From Escherichia coli (GTDB lineage: Bacteria > Pseudomonadota > Gammaproteobacteria > Enterobacterales > Enterobacteriaceae), in the NCBI RefSeq assembly GCF_041886205.1, contig NZ_CP169029.1: a stretch of DNA of 64,000 bases; one strand, written 5' to 3'. The notes under the pieces were generated by a model. The model saw only the letters and a program-made list of their open reading frames with translations. It was not told where the DNA came from and did not search any database. Shown piece by piece: positions 5,408 to 62,057 of the stretch. Position 1 is the first letter of the stretch; every line of letters starts with the position of its first letter. A program made the position numbers and the translations under genes.

Positions 5408-7614
5408 GTGGACTGGCTTCTTGATGTTTTTGCTACCTGGCTCTACGGCTTAAAAGTAATCGCGATAACGTTAGCGGTCATCATGTTCATCAGTGGGCTG
5501 GACGATTTTTTTATTGATGTCGTCTACTGGGTACGCCGCATTAAACGCAAGTTGAGTGTTTATCGCCGCTACCCGCGAATGAGTTACCGCGAACTGTATA
5601 AACCAGATGAAAAACCGTTAGCGATTATGGTTCCGGCGTGGAATGAAACGGGCGTCATCGGCAATATGGCCGAGCTGGCGGCGACCACGCTCGACTATGA
5701 AAACTATCATATCTTTGTTGGCACCTACCCCAACGACCCCGATACTCACCAAACGTGCATAAGGTAGTCTGCGCGCGTCCTGGCCCCACCAGCAAAGCCG
5801 ACTGCCTGAACAACGTGCTGGACGCCATCACCCAGTTTGAGCGTAGCGCCAATTTCGCTTTTGCTGGTTTTATTCTGCATGACGCCGAAGACGTAATTTC
5901 ACCGATGGAATTGCGTCTGTTCAACTATCTGGTCGAGCGTAAAGATCTGATTCAAATCCCGGTATACCCATTCGAACGCGAATGGACGCACTTCACCAGC
6001 ATGACTTACATTGATGAGTTTTCAGAACTGCATGGCAAAGATGTTCCGGTGCGTGAAGCCCTCGCCGGACAGGTGCCCAGCGCAGGCGTCGGTACTTGTT
6101 TCAGCCGCCGCGCCGTGACCGCACTGTTAGCTGACGGTGACGGTATTGCTTTCGACGTGCAGAGTCTTACTGAAGATTACGACATTGGTTTCCGCCTGAA
6201 AGAAAAAGGTATGACGGAAATTTTTGTCCGTTTTCCGGTGGTGGACGAAGCCAAAGAACGCGAGCAGCGTAAATTTTTACAGCACGCGCGGACGTCAAAC
6301 ATGATCTGCGTGCGCGAATATTTCCCCGATACCTTTTCGACTGCGGTTCGACAAAAATCTCGCTGGATCATCGGCATTGTTTTCCAGGGCTTTAAAACCC
6401 ATAAATGGACCTCCAGCCTGACGCTGAACTACTTTCTCTGGCGCGACCGCAAAGGGGCAATCAGTAACTTTGTCAGCTTCCTCGCGATGCTGGTGATGAT
6501 CCAGCTTTTGCTGTTGCTGGCGTATGAAAGTTTGTGGCCCGATGCCTGGCATTTCCTTTCTATTTTTAGCGGCAGCGCATGGTTAATGACCCTGCTGTGG
6601 CTAAACTTTGGCTTGATGGTTAACCGCATCGTGCAGCGAGTGATTTTCGTCACTGGCTACTACGGCCTCACGCAGGGCCTGCTTTCCGTCCTGCGTCTTT
6701 TCTGGGGCAACCTGATTAACTTCATGGCCAACTGGCGCGCGCTAAAACAGGTACTCCAACACGGCGATCCACGTCGCGTCGCGTGGGATAAAACAACGCA
6801 TGACTTCCCCAGCGTGACTGGCGATACCCGCTCGTTGCGCCCGTTAGGCCAAATTCTGCTGGAAAATCAGGTCATCACTGAAGAACAACTCGATACAGCA
6901 CTGCGTAATCGCGTCGAAGGTCTACGCCTGGGCGGTTCAATGCTGATGCAGGGGCTGATTAGCGCCGAGCAGCTGGCACAGGCGCTGGCAGAGCAAAACG
7001 GCGTGGCGTGGGAATCCATCGATGCCTGGCAGATCCCTTCCTCGCTGATTGCCGAAATGCCGGCCTCCGTGGCGCTGCATTATGCGGTACTGCCGCTGCG
7101 TCTGGAAAATGATGAGTTAATTGTCGGCAGTGAAGATGGTATTGACCCGGTTTCGCTGGCGGCCCTTACGCGTAAAGTCGGACGCAAAGTGCGTTACGTC
7201 ATTGTTCTGCGGGGACAAATTGTCACAGGGTTACGTCACTGGTATGCACGCCGACGCGGTCACGATCCGCGGGCAATGTTGTACAATGCGGTTCAGCATC
7301 AGTGGCTCACGGAACAGCAGACCGGTGAAATCTGGCGGCAATATGTGCCGCATCAGTTCCTGTTCGCCGAAATACTGACCACGCTCGGTCATATTAATCG
7401 TTCAGCAATTAACGTGTTGTTATTGCGCCATGAACGCAGTTCTCTGCCGCTCGGCAAGTTTTTGGTCACCGAAGGCGTTATCAGCCAGGAAACGTTGGAT
7501 CGCGTCCTGACAATTCAACGCGAATTACAAGTTTCGATGCAATCACTATTACTCAAAGCAGGTTTAAACACAGAACAGGTTGCGCAACTGGAGTCCGAAA
7601 ATGAAGGAGAATAA
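5408..7614 (+). pseudogene. nfrB: nfrB (inner-membrane glycosyltransferase, phage N4 receptor component) disrupted by a frameshift
   Basis: Two overlapping ORFs in different frames (5408..5767, 119 aa; 5755..7614, 619 aa) together cover a GT2-type glycosyltransferase. Frame 2 stops at TAG 5765-5767 right after ...YPNDPDT; the protein resumes in frame 1 at ...NVHKVVCARPGPTSKADCLNNVL. Expected single product is about 745 aa (from memory). Confidence 0.75.
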
Positions 7615-10573
7615 CCTTAATCGCGTCATCGGATGGTCTGGTTTACTGCTGACGTCTTTATTGAGTACCAGCGCACTCGCAGACAATATCGGCACCAGCG
7701 CAGAAGAGCTGGGGCTGAGCGATTATCGCCATTTTGTTATTTATCCCCGTCTCGATAAGGCGCTGAAGGCACAGAAAAATAACGACGAAGCAACCGCCAT
7801 CCGCGAATTTGAATATATACACCAGCAGGTGCCGGATAATATTCTGCTGACTTTATACCTTGCGGAAGCCTATCGCCATTTTGGTCATGATGACCGGGCG
7901 AGGCTGTTGCTTGAGGATCAACTGAAACGTCACCCAGGAGATGCCCGACTTGAGCGCAGTCTGGCGGCTATTCCGGTTGAAGTGAAAAGCGTTACAACTG
8001 TTGAAGAACTGCTTGCCCAGCAAAAAGCGTGCGATGCTGCGCCGACCCTGCGTTGTCGCAGTGAAGTCGGGCAGAATGCCCTGCGGCTGGCACAGTTACC
8101 TGTCGCCAGAGCGCAACTGAACGATGCGACGTTTGCTGCATCGCCGGAAGGAAAAACGCTGCGAACCGATCTGCTGCAACGGGCAATCTACCTGAAACAA
8201 TGGTCACAGGCAGATACGCTATACAATGAAGCACGCCAGCAGAACACATTAAGCGCGGCAGAACGCCGTCAGTGGTTTGACGTGCTTCTTGCCGGGCAGC
8301 TGGACGATCGGATCCTGGCACTGCAATCACAGGGGATCTTCACCGATCCTCAGTCATATATTACTTACGCGACCGCGCTGGCTTATCGTGGCGAAAAAGC
8401 ACGCCTCCAGCATTATCTCATTGAAAATAAGCCGCTGTTTACCACGGACGCACAAGAGAAAAGTTGGCTCTATCTGTTATCTAAATACAGCGGCAACCCC
8501 GTTCAGGCATTGGCGAATTATACGGTGCAGTTTGCCGATAACCGCCAGTATGTTGTTGGCGCGACGCTACCGGTGCTGTTAAAAGAAGGTCAGTACGACG
8601 CAGCGCAAAAACTGCTCGCCACCCTCCCCGCCAATGAAATGCTTGAGGAGCGTTATGCTGTCAGCGTGGCGACCCATAACAAGGCTGAAGCTTTGCGTCT
8701 GGCACGATTGCTGTATCAGCAAGAACCGGCAAATCTTACCCGCCTGGATCAACTGACCTGGCAACTGATGCAGAACGAGCAGTCACGCGAAGCTGCCGAT
8801 TTATTGCTGCAACGCTATCCTTTCCAGGGCGATGCGCGTGTCAGCCAGACTTTAATGGCGCGACTGGCGTCTCTGCTGGAAAGTCATCCTTACCTGGCAA
8901 CGCCGGCGAAGGTGGCGATTTTATCGAAACCCTTACCGCTGGCGGAGCAACGTCAGTGGCAAAGTCAGTTGCCGGGTATTGCAGATAATTGCCCGGCAAT
9001 AGTTCGCTTGCTGGGCGATATGTCGCCTTCCTACGATGCTGCCGCCTGGAACCGTCTGGCAAAGTGTTATCGGGACACGCTACCCGGTGTGGCGTTGTAT
9101 ACATGGCTTCAGGCCGAACAACGACAACCGAGCGCCTGGCAACATCGTGCGGTAGCCTATCAGGCGTATCAGGTTGAGGACTACGCCACCGCACTGGCGG
9201 CCTGGCAGAAAATCAGTCTTCACGACATGAGCAATGAGGATCTGCTTGCTGCTGCCAATACCGCCCAGGCGGCAGGAAATGGTGCGGCTCGCGATCGCTG
9301 GCTACAACAGGCAGAACAACGTGGACTGGGAAGCAATGCCCTCTACTGGTGGCTGCATGCACAACGTTACATTCCTGGTCAGCCGGAACTCGCACTGAAC
9401 GATCTCACGCGCTCAATCAATATTGCGCCTTCTGCCAACGCTTACGTTGCGCGGGCGACAATTTATCGCCAACGTCATAATGTCCCGGCCGCGGTGAGTG
9501 ATTTGCGCGCCGCGCTGGAACTGGAACCGAATAATAGCAACATCCAGGCAGCGCTTGGTTACGCCTTGTGGGATAGCAGTGATATCGCACAGTCGCGGGA
9601 AATGCTCGAACAGGCGCATAAAGGGCTTCCGGACGATCCGGCACTGATCCGACAACTGGCCTACGTGAACCAGCGTCTGGATGACATGCCTGCGACGCAG
9701 CACTACGCCCGGCTAGTGATTGATGACATTGATAATCAGGCGCTGATAACCCCACTGACCCCAGAGCAAAATCAACAACGCTTCAATTTCCGCCGTTTGC
9801 ATGAGGAGGTCGGTCGCCGCTGGACGTTCAGTTTCGATTCTTCTATCGGCTTGCGTTCCGGGGCAATGAGTACCTCTAACAATAATGTTGGCGGCGCAGC
9901 GCCAGGGAAAAGCTATCGTAGCTACGGGCAACTGGAAGCCGAGTACCGCATCGGACGCAATATGCTGCTGGAAGGCGACCTGCTCTCAGTTTATAGCCGC
10001 GTCTTTACCGATACCGGAGAAAACGGGGTGATGATGCCGGTGAAAAATCCGATGTCCGGCACCGGTCTGCGCTGGAAGCCGCTGCGCGATCAGATCTTTT
10101 TCCTCGCCGTCGAACAGCAGTTGCCGCTGAACGGGCAAAATGGCGCATCCGATACCATGCTGCGCGCCAGCGCCTCATTCTTTAATGGCGGCAAATACAG
10201 CGACGAATGGCACCCGAACGGTTCAGGCTGGTTTGCCCAAAACCTGTACCTCGATGCGGCGCAATATATCCGCCAGGATATTCAGGCGTGGACGGCAGAT
10301 TATCGCGTCAGCTGGCATCAGAAGGTAGCTAACGGACAGACTATTGAGCCTTACGCTCACGTTCAGGACAACGGCTATCGTGATAAAGGCACTCAGGGCG
10401 CGCAGCTTGGCGGAGTCGGGGTCCGCTGGAATATCTGGACCGGCGAGACGCACTACGACGCCTGGCCGCACAAAGTCAGTCTCGGCGTCGAGTATCAACA
10501 TACCTTTAAGGCGATTAATCAACGTAACGGAGAGCGCAACAACGCGTTTCTCACCATTGGAGTGCACTGGTAA
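7601..10573 (+). CDS. nfrA: Outer membrane protein NfrA (phage N4 receptor, TPR-containing)
   Basis: ORF 7580..10573; internal start at 7601 gives MKENNLNRVIGWSGLLL with signal peptide and about 990 aa; overlaps the nfrB stop. Confidence 0.85.
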   Translation: MKENNLNRVIGWSGLLLTSLLSTSALADNIGTSAEELGLSDYRHFVIYPRLDKALKAQKNNDEATAIREFEYIHQQVPDNILLTLYLAEAYRHFGHDDRARLLLEDQLKRHPGDARLERSLAAIPVEVKSVTTVEELLAQQKACDAAPTLRCRSEVGQNALRLAQLPVARAQLNDATFAASPEGKTLRTDLLQRAIYLKQWSQADTLYNEARQQNTLSAAERRQWFDVLLAGQLDDRILALQSQGIFTDPQSYITYATALAYRGEKARLQHYLIENKPLFTTDAQEKSWLYLLSKYSGNPVQALANYTVQFADNRQYVVGATLPVLLKEGQYDAAQKLLATLPANEMLEERYAVSVATHNKAEALRLARLLYQQEPANLTRLDQLTWQLMQNEQSREAADLLLQRYPFQGDARVSQTLMARLASLLESHPYLATPAKVAILSKPLPLAEQRQWQSQLPGIADNCPAIVRLLGDMSPSYDAAAWNRLAKCYRDTLPGVALYTWLQAEQRQPSAWQHRAVAYQAYQVEDYATALAAWQKISLHDMSNEDLLAAANTAQAAGNGAARDRWLQQAEQRGLGSNALYWWLHAQRYIPGQPELALNDLTRSINIAPSANAYVARATIYRQRHNVPAAVSDLRAALELEPNNSNIQAALGYALWDSSDIAQSREMLEQAHKGLPDDPALIRQLAYVNQRLDDMPATQHYARLVIDDIDNQALITPLTPEQNQQRFNFRRLHEEVGRRWTFSFDSSIGLRSGAMSTSNNNVGGAAPGKSYRSYGQLEAEYRIGRNMLLEGDLLSVYSRVFTDTGENGVMMPVKNPMSGTGLRWKPLRDQIFFLAVEQQLPLNGQNGASDTMLRASASFFNGGKYSDEWHPNGSGWFAQNLYLDAAQYIRQDIQAWTADYRVSWHQKVANGQTIEPYAHVQDNGYRDKGTQGAQLGGVGVRWNIWTGETHYDAWPHKVSLGVEYQHTFKAINQRNGERNNAFLTIGVHW

Positions 10574-12408: not shown

Positions 12409-12453
12409 AGGGCAAAGCGGAAACGGATAAGACGGGCATAAATGAAGAAGAAA

Positions 12454-12530
12454 TGGCGCGCCCTGCAGGATTCGAACCTGCGGCCCACGACTTAGAAGGT
12501 CGTTGCTCTATCCAACTGAGCTAAGGGCGC
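12454..12530 (-). tRNA. argU: tRNA-Arg (anticodon UCU)
   Basis: Minus-strand 77-nt sequence GCGCCCTTAGCTCAGTTGGATAGAGCAACGACCTTCTAAGTCGTGGGCCGCAGGTTCGAATCCTGCAGGGCGCGCCA with cloverleaf, UCU anticodon and encoded CCA. Confidence 0.9.
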
Positions 12531-25750: not shown

Positions 25751-25840
25751 TTGCCGGATGCGGCGTGAACGCCTTATCCGGCCTACACCGATCCGGTACC
25801 CATTGTAGGCCTGATAAGACGCGTCAAGCGTCGCATCAGG
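25751..25840. repeat. REP (repetitive extragenic palindromic) element pair
   Basis: GCCGGATGCGGCGTGAACGCCTTATCCGGCCTAC and inverted partner GTAGGCCTGATAAGACGCGTCAAGCGTCGCATCAGGC between convergent purK and ybcF. Confidence 0.7.
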
Positions 25841-25872
25841 CATGGTGCACCGATTGCTGGATGCTCTCATCA

Positions 25873-26766
25873 CTACAGCGAAATACAGGTCCCCGCTTCG
25901 CCCGCCAGCGTCTCTTCAATTCGCGATAACGCCCCAATCCACGCGGGTTTACCACGGCTTCTGACATAACCACTCACCGCCGTTACCTTCGGCCCCATCG
26001 AACCATCGGCTTTGGCAAATGGCGCTAACTCATCCGGTGTGGCATGGCGAATGGCGCGTTGCTGCGGCGTTCCCCAGTTTTCATATACCGCATCAGCATC
26101 AGTGAGGATCACCAGCCCATCGGCGTTAATCTGCTCAGCGAGCAACGCAGCAGCGAGATCTTTATCAATCACCGCTTCACTCCCTGCCCCATCTTCCGTC
26201 ACAGGCACACCGCCGCCGCCACTGCAAATCACCACATGCCCCTCTTTGAGCAACAACTCGATGGCTTCGCTGTCGAGAATTTTACGCGGTTGCGGAGACG
26301 CCACCACCCGGCGCAAATATTTACCATCACGTTTCATCTGCCAGCCGTAAGCTGCTTCCAGTGCCTCTTGTTCTTCTGGCTGATAGACCGGACCGATAAA
26401 CTTCTCTGGCTGCAAAAACGCCGGATCATCAGGCGAAACTTCAATGCGCGTCAGCACCGTCGTGACAGGCGGCATCTGCGGCTGTGCGCTCAAACTCTGC
26501 GCCAGCATATAGCCAATCATCCCCTGACTTTCTGCCACCAGCACATCCAGCGGATACGGTTCCACTTCTTTCCACGCCAGATTCTGTAACGCCAGCAGCC
26601 CCACCTGCGGCCCGTTGCCGTGAACAATCGCCAGCCGATAAGAACGGGCCAGGCGCGCCAGCGCAGGTACAGCACTGGCGATATTGCGATATTGATTTTC
26701 TGCCGTCAGCGCCTCACCGCGCTGAAGCAAGGCATTGCCCCCAAGAGCTACAACCAGTGTTTTCAT
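25873..26766 (-). CDS. ybcF: Carbamate kinase-like protein
   Basis: 297-aa ORF of the amino-acid kinase family ([14 protein letters not shown]...); terminal gene of the fdrA-ylbE-ylbF-ybcF cluster. Confidence 0.8.
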
Positions 26767-27588: not shown

Positions 27589-28848
27589 TCAACCAATCCC
27601 CATGCTTTCAGCCAGTGCTTCCAGCGCCTGTTCAAAACACGCCAGCGGTGCCCGCACAGTGCCTGCGCCAATCTGCCCGATCCCCGCCTCTTTATGGGCG
27701 ATACCGGTATTGATGAGTGGCGTAATGCCGGTTTCTACCACGCGACGAATGTCCAGTCCCAGGCACGCGCCCTGAAAATCCCAGCCTGGGATCTGCAACT
27801 GCATATTGCGCTCAAGGTAAATTTCCGCCATCTCTTCAGATACCGCTCTGGCCGCTTCCATGCCACCCGCACCGACAAAGCGCGTTACGCCAGGCGCTGC
27901 GATCATTGCCGCACCTCCGATACCAAAGGTTTCGGTAATCGCGCTATCGCCCATATCCGGGTTCGCCTGCTCCTGCGAGAAGCCGGTGAAAAACAGACCT
28001 TGCGGAGTGTTTACAGGCGCAGTAAACCAGCGTTCGCCCAGCCCGCTTACCCGAATCCCGAACATATTGCCGTTGCGGGTCATTGCCGTGACGATGCTGC
28101 CTGCGCGGATCATCGCGCCAGCATCCATCGCCGCCTTGCAGTAAGCCATCGCGAGGTTGAGGAAGAACTGATCGGTCACGCTGAGGAAATCCATCACTTC
28201 GGCGATGTGCTGTTTATCATGATCGAGGCGAGCAATTTGTGGGGCCAGCGCACGCATTAACAGTGCAGAGGAAGCAATATTGCGTTGATGGAACTCATCG
28301 CCCATCGTAATGCCCTGCGCCATCATCGCCGTGAGATCGATACCGCGCTCCATGCGCCCCAGCGCCGCGCTTAATACTGGCATTAACACATCGCGCATCC
28401 AGCGATGGCGAGTCAGGACATCTTCGCCGTAAGCGCCAAAACGCATCACTTTGCCGATACCTTCGTTGAGGTTGCAGTACGCCCGGTTGCCGTCGGTCAC
28501 GTTCTCGACCACCAGCATCGGCATACTGGCAGAAGTAATACCGCCCATTGGACCGACGGCATTCACATGGTGACAAGGAATGAAGTTCACTTCCCCCTGC
28601 TCCAGTATTGCCAGCGCCTGCGCTTCATCTTTCACCCAGCCTTCGAACAGACATGCGCCCACGCACGCCCCTTTCATGGGTCCGGTCATCTCCTGCCAGC
28701 GCATTGGCGGCCCGGCGTGAAGCAGTGTTTTGCCCTCGTTTAGTTCGCTGATAAGTGAAGAAGCCGGTTGCACATCCAGCCAGTGTGGACGAGCGCGACG
28801 AATTTGTTCGATAACCGCAGCATTGGCTTGCGCTACTGATGTAAACAT
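27589..28848 (-). CDS. ylbE: Uncharacterised protein YlbE (DUF1116)
   Basis: Uninterrupted 419-aa ORF between fdrA and ylbF. Confidence 0.7.
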
Positions 28849-28857
28849 GGGAACCCC

Positions 28858-30525
28858 TTATTGCAAACGTTCTAATAAACGAGCCAGTTTTTTATTGCCG
28901 CCGGCGACTGGCGACCATTGGTAATGCACAACCGGTTTGCTGGCGCTTTGTAGCTCCAGCGCAAAGCTGCGTAATCCGATGTTAATCACGGCGACGTTTT
29001 CCAGTAATGACGGTGTGTGTTGCTGAGTGGCAGGCGAAAGCGGACGAATCAGTGCCGCCGCCAGCAAGGTGGCTTCCGGCAGCGAACTCACTACCGCGAT
29101 CCCTGCATCTTCCAGCGTGGCGATTTGCTGCGAGCGGCATTGCGGGTCACGTTCAGTGCCTGTCACCGTGGCAATGGCATACAGTGGTTGATTGTCTGAA
29201 CGCGCGGCACATGCTTTTTGCCAGGCGCTTACCAGCGAGGCGGCAGGATCGGCGGTCGCACCGAAGCCAATCACGACATCAAGCAGCAATACGCGCACTT
29301 GCGGTTTAGCGCCGAGATCGGCAATTAACTGGTTGCGTAAGGCTGGGTCGATCATCGGATGGGGACGCCCGACGGTGTAGAAATCATCGCCGAGGTCAAT
29401 AATCTGGTGACCATCGGCGTCGAGCATCATGCCGTGATGATGGGTATCGTCGGCTTCCACGCCAAGGTGTCCAGCAAGTAATCCCGCCGCTTCGGCAGCC
29501 AGCGTACCGCCGGTATACAAACCGCAAATAAATCCGCTGCTGACAGGCGCTATTGCGTTACGTCGCGCCGTGACACGTGAAAGCAGGCAAGCCAGGCGTG
29601 CGGCCTCATCCAGCGAGGAGGCAAACCAGACATTCTCGTCGCGGGCCACCGCCGGGGTATAACCTAAAAACAGCGCCACCGTCGGTTTGCCGGTTGCTTT
29701 CATGGCATTAACAATTTTCAGACGCACAGCTTCGGCAGGCGGTTTTGAAACAAATGCCAGCACTTCGCTTTTCTCGTCTGCACTGAGCATTTCCAGCGCC
29801 GTCAGCGCACTGATGCCGCCTACTTCACGGCTGAGGTCGCGCCCGCCAAGGCCAATCGCGTGAGTAATTCCCTCCCCTGCCAGCGCAATCTGCGAGCACA
29901 GCTCCTGAATCCCGGTACCGGAAGCGCCAATGACGCCAATGTTGCCTTCCGGCATCACGTTAGCAAAAGCCAGCGGCGTGCCGGCAATCATCGATGTACC
30001 GCAGTCCGGCCCCATCACCAGCAAGCCTTTTTCCCGCGCGCGGGTTTTAAGTTGGATTTCATCTTCCAGCGTGACGTTATCGGAGAACATCATCACGTTG
30101 AGGTTGCGATCCAGCGCCTGGTTCGCCAGCTCCGCCGCATACTCACCAGCCACTGAAATCAGCGCCAGACTGGCGTCGGGTAATTTCTGACAGGCACTGT
30201 CCCAGCGACGCACCTGCGTCAACGCCTGGCTGCTGCCTGCCCCCTGCGCCAGTTGTTTTAGCGCCTCTTCAAGCTGCTGCATAATCGCCTGCGCGATCCC
30301 CGCATCCGCCGCTTCGCTACGAATTGCCACGCAAATATCGTTCGGCGTGGCGTTATTAAAATCGTCATGCCAGAAACCTGTGGTATCTAATAACGCTTTA
30401 TTGGCGGGCGTACCCATCATTACGGAAACATCATCAACATTTTCTGATTCGCTGAGTTTTCGTGAAATAATCATTAAACTGACCGAATCCTGAAAACACC
30501 CTTTTTTAATAAAGGCGTGGATCAT
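28858..30525 (-). CDS. fdrA: FdrA (succinyl-CoA synthetase-like / CoA-binding family protein)
   Basis: 555-aa ORF with CoA-binding and ligase-CoA domains. Confidence 0.8.
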   Translation of the reverse strand: MIHAFIKKGCFQDSVSLMIISRKLSESENVDDVSVMMGTPANKALLDTTGFWHDDFNNATPNDICVAIRSEAADAGIAQAIMQQLEEALKQLAQGAGSSQALTQVRRWDSACQKLPDASLALISVAGEYAAELANQALDRNLNVMMFSDNVTLEDEIQLKTRAREKGLLVMGPDCGTSMIAGTPLAFANVMPEGNIGVIGASGTGIQELCSQIALAGEGITHAIGLGGRDLSREVGGISALTALEMLSADEKSEVLAFVSKPPAEAVRLKIVNAMKATGKPTVALFLGYTPAVARDENVWFASSLDEAARLACLLSRVTARRNAIAPVSSGFICGLYTGGTLAAEAAGLLAGHLGVEADDTHHHGMMLDADGHQIIDLGDDFYTVGRPHPMIDPALRNQLIADLGAKPQVRVLLLDVVIGFGATADPAASLVSAWQKACAARSDNQPLYAIATVTGTERDPQCRSQQIATLEDAGIAVVSSLPEATLLAAALIRPLSPATQQHTPSLLENVAVINIGLRSFALELQSASKPVVHYQWSPVAGGNKKLARLLERLQ

Positions 30526-47074: not shown

Positions 47075-47137
47075 TGGGCGGTATTCTGAAACGGCGATTG
47101 TCGTGAGAACAGAATGGTTGCACCAGAATACAGATAT

Positions 47138-47167
47138 AAAAAAACCGACATGACAGTCGGTTTTTTT
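47138..47167. terminator. Bidirectional intrinsic terminator (selU on plus, candidate sRNA on minus)
   Basis: A7-CCGAC-ATGACA-GTCGG-T7: hairpin flanked by an A-run and a T-run, so it works on either strand. Confidence 0.6.
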
Positions 47168-47225
47168 ATTTTTTCCGCCCAAGACTTGGTGGTTCCGGGC
47201 AGAAATGAAACAGTCCTCATCTAGC
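47140..47225 (-). ncRNA. Candidate antisense antitoxin sRNA (about 86 nt) of a type I toxin-antitoxin pair
   Basis: Transcript inferred from the promoter at 47232..47260 to the terminator at 47138..47167. Its 5' end (reverse complement of 47207..47225) is complementary to 47393..47411 upstream of the toxin ORF, about 19 bp including 2 G-U pairs. Confidence 0.5.
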
Positions 47226-47231
47226 AAGTGA

Positions 47232-47260
47232 ATTATAAGTCAGGATGCCTCCATATTCAA
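47232..47260 (-). promoter_or_regulatory. Near-consensus sigma70 promoter driving the candidate sRNA
   Basis: On the minus strand: TTGAAT, 17-nt spacer, TATAAT (perfect -10), oriented away from the toxin ORF. Confidence 0.6.
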
Positions 47261-47485
47261 ACAGCTATGTTGGCGATACAATCCCGACGCTAGTAGTGAT
47301 ACTGCCTCAAGGGATTACCGCAGTGCGGAAAAGTACTTTTAAGTCCTGGTCAGGATACAGGTGGTGCTGATTCTGGTGCTCTAATTTGGAGAGAGGCAGT
47401 CCTCATCTAGCACATGAAGAAAATCATAGTTACAGGCAACGTAAGGGTAAGCTGTGATTGTCTTTCTCCCTTAAGGGAGCAACGG

Positions 47486-47569
47486 ATGAAAACTTTTCTC
47501 GATAAAGTTCTCATCGTTCTTAAGGCGCTAATCGCGCTGCTGGAACTGATCCGTCAGTTTATTGAATAA
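47486..47569 (+). CDS. Candidate type I toxin, 27-aa hydrophobic peptide (DinQ/ZorO/TisB-like)
   Basis: ATG preceded by AAGGGAG with 7-nt spacing; product MKTFLDKVLIVLKALIALLELIRQFIE is a single amphipathic helix closely resembling DinQ as I remember it (shared ALIALLELIR); followed by a hairpin terminator. Below the ORF-track size cutoff. Confidence 0.6.
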   Translation: MKTFLDKVLIVLKALIALLELIRQFIE

Positions 47570-47589
47570 CTGAGGAAACGTAGCTAAGG

Positions 47590-47615
47590 CCGAAGGTTTA
47601 CCACCTTCGGTCTTT
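47590..47615 (+). terminator. Intrinsic terminator after the toxin ORF
   Basis: CCGAAGGT-TTACC-ACCTTCGG 8-bp stem followed by TCTTT. Confidence 0.5.
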
Positions 47616-47641
47616 AAAAAAACCGACATGACAGTTGGTTT
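47616..47641. repeat. Second copy of the A7-CCGACATGACAGTYGG hairpin (direct repeat of 47138..47163)
   Basis: AAAAAAACCGACATGACAGTTGGTTT matches 47138..47163 at 25 of 26 positions; the two copies bracket the toxin/sRNA module. Confidence 0.5.
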
Positions 47642-47672
47642 CATATTTATTGCCAAAATGCACACTGTTCAT

Positions 47673-47770
<98 letters not shown>

Positions 47771-47786
47771 AATCTAACACCTGTCA

Positions 47787-61742: not shown

Positions 61743-61799
61743 GTACGTCATTGCGGATGCGCTGCTTTAGAGCGGCGCATTTGGCATCGACGCATGACT

Positions 61800-62035
<236 letters not shown>

Positions 62036-62057
62036 GAGATGAAGCGATGTTTTGGCC

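Follow-up and report, generated by a model that had tools for sequence, protein, structure and literature searches.

Does an intact ylbE gene set an Escherichia coli sequence apart from the K-12 MG1655 reference? The question arises from a 64,000-nucleotide stretch of E. coli DNA (the window), in which a first-pass annotation found ylbE as one continuous reading frame, took the MG1655 copy to be frameshifted and split into two fragments, and proposed the intact form as a lineage marker. The comparisons described here make it almost certain that ylbE in the window is the normal, functional allG of a commensal-type, non-K-12 E. coli, and that the MG1655 frameshift is a peculiarity of first-generation records that reflects no difference between lineages.

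The allG gene and its operon

The ORF list and its translation place ylbE on the minus strand at 27589..28848, as an uninterrupted frame of 419 codons plus a stop, with an ATG start at 28848. The first-pass annotation had described this 419-codon frame correctly, omitting its strand. Placement on the plus strand was considered and rejected, as translation of the same interval in that direction meets many stops and the uninterrupted frame is that of the minus strand.

The encoded protein matches Pfam PF06545 over the entire profile (positions 1–215 of 215; E=7.9e-98) with 326.7 bits, which clears the curated gathering score of 27 bits. A match that spans the full profile shows ylbE to be a genuine gene rather than a frame that is open by chance. 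PF06545, formerly DUF1116, is now named AllG, oxamate carbamoyltransferase subunit. The profile match, the placement in an allF-allG-allH-allK order beside allDCE and the full-length 419-residue product all agree with membership of AllG. As an NCBIfam profile scan returned no family for YlbE or YlbF, YlbE is assigned on the basis of Pfam, of synteny and of its close identity to the K-12 protein. At the DNA level, the gene is 100% identical to ylbE as annotated in many RefSeq genomes.

The gene and its neighbours are arranged as follows.

25873..26766, minus strand: ybcF (allK), carbamate kinase, 297 aa, intact; NF006926 carbamate kinase equivalog, 621 bits
26763..27578, minus strand: ylbF (allH), 271 aa, intact; Pfam AllH, E=1.4e-29
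27589..28848, minus strand: ylbE (allG), intact; ORF with Pfam AllG match, product identical to WP_000495380.1
28858..30525, minus strand: fdrA (allF), 555 aa, intact; CoA_binding and Ligase_CoA domains, NF004760 FdrA 1043 bits
30842..31891, plus strand: allD, which heads the divergently transcribed allD-allC-allE operon

The fdrA-ylbE-ylbF-ybcF (allFGHK) cluster is complete, as had been proposed from the first reading of the sequence: fdrA, ylbF and ybcF are full length, have no internal stop and equal their MG1655 counterparts in length. Spacing within the cluster is tight. The fdrA stop codon is followed after 9 bases by the ylbE ATG, with a Shine-Dalgarno-like GGGG motif in the spacer; 10 nt separate the ylbE stop from the ylbF start, and the last 4 nt of ylbF are shared with ybcF. 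The order fdrA-ylbE-ylbF-ybcF beside allDCE is collinear with that of MG1655. The gene in the window is a known one, ylbE/allG, in its usual intact form, and its anatomy is that of the characterised K-12 operon.

The frameshifted allele of older reference records

In the current MG1655 reference, NC_000913.3, ylbE is a single intact CDS of 1260 nt (b4572, YP_009029994.1; 548357..549616). Alignment of the window gene to this CDS gives 12 substitutions and no indels (99.05% identity), with the same length and the same run of five G residues; the two proteins differ at two residues, V72A and G355S (the residue of the window is given first). The reference is therefore not identical to the window across the ORF, and the single-base difference that the first-pass annotation expected is absent, all differences being substitutions. 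Its statement that ylbE is frameshifted and split in MG1655 does not hold for NC_000913.3 and holds for the superseded version of that reference only.

The allele described for that superseded version can be defined by two positions in the gene, both of which are informative in the window.

28593..28597, minus strand: five-G run (gene positions 252–256); old MG1655 and W3110 records have four G, which leads to TGA at codon 87
28735, minus strand: gene position 114, a silent site in codon E38; the old-reference allele has A, the window and NC_000913.3 have G

Removing one G from the run in silico introduces the TGA at codon 87. Like NC_000913.3, the window has a run of five G residues and G at position 114, and so the old-reference pseudogene allele (four G with A114) is absent from it. 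In alignment, ylbE of the W3110 record NC_007779.1 (547581-548839) and of strain CIT (NZ_CP026028.1) departs from NC_000913.3 at two positions only, 114 and 252, and in both records the gene is flagged 'frameshifted'. W3110 thus offers a direct contrast: its ylbE lies on a K-12-type backbone like that of NC_000913.3, yet it carries A114 and four G and is annotated as a pseudogene.

Published resequencing bears on the same two positions. In MG1655 stocks, reads mapped to an earlier version of the reference yielded the changes '547,694 A>G' and '547,831 +G', which convert ylbE from a pseudogene into an open reading frame (PMC5460176, PMC4404585). An ylbE+ allele was reported both in a derivative of MG1655 and in ATCC 47076, with ylbE counted among the lesions of the reference (PMC4759930). 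NCM3722 has an intact ylbE and is said to have 'restored an intact ancestral gene' (PMC3045373). The paper on DGF-298 names ylbE only within a deleted block and is silent on the W3110 allele. From these papers, with W3110 and CIT serving as proxies for the state of ylbE in the old version (NC_000913.2/U00096.2), we infer that the frameshifted gene belongs to the superseded MG1655 sequence and disappeared with its revision to NC_000913.3.

The distribution of the two alleles among complete E. coli genomes is strongly uneven. The ylbE locus is present in 5,418 of 5,426 genomes. A 64-nt probe carrying the four-G run is matched exactly, among the matches listed, in 4 of the 5,417 genomes with a match: W3110 (NC_007779.1, a 2006 record), CIT, LIM and CAR; one further match of at least 99% identity lies outside the matches listed. 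A probe carrying A114 is matched exactly in 4 of 5,398 genomes, and these are the same records. CIT, LIM and CAR are numbered by the old MG1655 coordinates; their match positions equal or nearly equal that of W3110, and CIT and LIM have about the length of MG1655, which suggests that all three are reference-guided assemblies on the old MG1655 sequence. The old allele in W3110, CIT, LIM and CAR may be a record error, either uncorrected or inherited from a template.

When ylbE of NC_000913.3 is used as the query, the best 60 matches listed are all 100% identical, so that at least 60 records hold the exact intact allele. K-12 laboratory strains make up most of these matches, among them several separately deposited MG1655 sequences, C600, J53, DH1, DH5alpha, RR1, NEB 5-alpha, AG100 and NCM3722. 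On this distribution, the split form of ylbE characterises a few records that are early or derived from a template, and does not characterise the K-12 lineage.

These observations weigh against the proposal that K-12 MG1655 is truly frameshifted in ylbE and that the intact gene is a genuine lineage marker. The proposal draws on the older literature, in which ylbE is one of the MG1655 reference lesions (PMC4759930), and on the RefSeq record of W3110, which still labels the gene 'frameshifted'. It is contradicted by the intact gene of NC_000913.3, by the 100% identity to the intact allele of the best 60 listed matches, which come mostly from diverse K-12 sub-lineages and include re-sequenced MG1655 stocks, and by the confinement of the frameshift to four records, three of which (CIT, LIM and CAR) look reference-guided on the old MG1655 sequence. 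It is accordingly judged highly improbable. Since nearly all E. coli normally carry the intact form, it marks no lineage, and the use of ylbE as a marker against MG1655 proposed in the first-pass annotation fails, NC_000913.3 itself being intact. Whether ylbE is intact or split is unfit for telling a sequence from MG1655.

A second explanation is that the five-G run is an unstable homopolymer, and that four G with A114 was a real, private polymorphism of the MG1655 and W3110 clones that were originally sequenced. Homopolymer runs do slip during replication, and it would be odd for independent errors to produce both changes in W3110 and in old MG1655, which are nominally separate; the wording used for NCM3722, a restored ancestral gene (PMC3045373), also fits such an event. 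However, the silent substitution, 138 nt away from the one-base deletion, always accompanies it and occurs nowhere else in approximately 5,400 genomes, and no other genome among the matches listed has the exact four-G variant in that sequence context. The constant pairing of A114 with four G points to a common source for a single stretch of sequence rather than to recurrent slippage. Private polymorphism is hence considered very unlikely. For the allele shared by old MG1655 and W3110, common provenance seems likelier than either two independent errors or a real polymorphism, and a sequencing error is the most likely origin of the four-G/A114 allele.

There is only the slightest chance that four G and A114 were truly present in the original MG1655 and W3110 clones and that the five-G run of allG is a natural slippage site. 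If this were so, slippage in the run could inactivate the oxamate branch of anaerobic allantoin breakdown, a branch that yields ATP.

Differences from MG1655 beyond ylbE and nearest genomes

With ylbE intact in NC_000913.3 as well, evidence that the window does not derive from the MG1655 reference has to come from elsewhere. The window is collinear with MG1655, in inverted orientation, from position 506,616 to beyond 596,000, the end of the MG1655 stretch compared, with 97.4-99.1% identity per block. The DLP12 prophage, which occupies 21.3 kb of MG1655 at argU (564,801-586,054) and includes emrE, appY and ompT, is absent from the window. Also absent, between mnmH/selU and ybbP, is the 7.3-kb rhsD-ybbC-ylbH-ybbD-ylbG block (MG1655 522,833-530,130). 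Together with the 12 substitutions in ylbE, these differences uphold the view, already put forward in the first-pass annotation, that the source is not the MG1655 reference; the usable markers in the window are its pattern of substitutions and the lack of DLP12 and of the rhsD block. An origin in W3110 or another K-12 strain was likewise considered and rejected, since identity is 97.4-99.1% and both DLP12 and rhsD are lacking.

Both sites of absence have a distinct local structure. At the argU/envY junction (approximately 12452-12501), tRNA-Arg lies directly beside envY, and the MG1655 alignment blocks on either side share 50 bp, the pattern expected where an attachment site is empty. At the rhsD-block site, window positions 47077-47783 hold approximately 0.7 kb of other sequence instead; this includes a 51-aa ORF (47414-47569), for which RefSeq gives the annotation DinQ type I toxin in the sister strain.

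Divergence from MG1655 also varies along the window. The all/gcl region (25790-47076) is 98.25% identical to MG1655, compared with 99.1% on the neighbouring purK-to-argU side, and individual genes range from 96.3% for ybcF and 97.7% for fdrA to 99.05% for ylbE. In fdrA, there are 39 nucleotide and 8 amino-acid differences. This patchy divergence of the all/gcl region suggests past recombination.

NfrB is a c-di-GMP-activated glycosyltransferase required for adsorption of phage N4. In the window, nfrB (5408-7614) has a 31-bp deletion after position 5748 relative to MG1655, which causes a frameshift and a stop at codon 120. Unlike ylbE, nfrB is a real pseudogene here, and the near-identical strain wlxctx60 has its nfrB annotated as 'frameshifted'. 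At 61771-62036, a palindromic unit of REP/BIME type (GCCGGATGCGGCGTAAACGCCTTATCCGGCCTAC) is repeated in tandem, in three copies spaced 101 bp apart; these repeats are 84% related to the ybcF-purK intergenic element at approximately 25790-25864.

The nearest genome found is that of E. coli wlxctx60 (NZ_AP045833.1), a strain from the faeces of an Asian black bear in Japan. Over 49,801 bp (window 5100-54900), it differs from the window by five substitutions, at 9101, 29816, 33939, 39722 and 48975. None of these falls in ylbE and one, at 29816, falls in fdrA. The window therefore stems from a very close relative of wlxctx60 rather than from NZ_AP045833.1 itself.

AllG function and comparison with characterised systems

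The function of allG has been established with K-12 proteins and strains. Purified AllF, AllG and AllH constitute oxamic transcarbamylase, deletion of allG abolishes the anaerobic production of oxamate from allantoin, and the gene is listed as 1,260 bp encoding 419 aa (UniProt P77129) (PMC11326118). The fourth gene of the operon, allK (ybcF), is described as encoding the catabolic carbamate kinase (PMC9843812).

By analogy, AllG in the window would combine with AllF (FdrA) and AllH (YlbF) as the oxamic transcarbamylase of anaerobic allantoin breakdown. The enzyme would convert oxalurate and phosphate into oxamate and carbamoyl phosphate, and AllK (YbcF), encoded by the last gene of the operon, would use the carbamoyl phosphate to yield ATP and ammonia. 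The AllG copy in the window is predicted to be active, given the 417 of 419 residues (99.5%) that it shares with the K-12 protein and the intact operon in which it lies.

Comparison with known systems supports this assignment at several distances. The closest counterparts are at the DNA level: ylbE of wlxctx60 (WP_000495380.1) is 100% identical to the window gene, and ylbE together with its flanks is likewise identical to the window in wlxctx60, HS, ATCC 8739 and many other genomes. The experimentally characterised counterpart is AllG of K-12 MG1655, an oxamic transcarbamylase subunit that also has 419 aa, holds the equivalent operon position beside allDCE and differs from the window protein at V72A and G355S. 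More distantly, PDB 3CLQ, a protein of 421 aa deposited as an 'uncharacterized protein', is by sequence a full-length homologue of YlbE (E=1.8e-111, query residues 2-414). It is a protein distinct from YlbE and its entry assigns no function; through this homologue of solved structure, the fold of the YlbE family is already solved.
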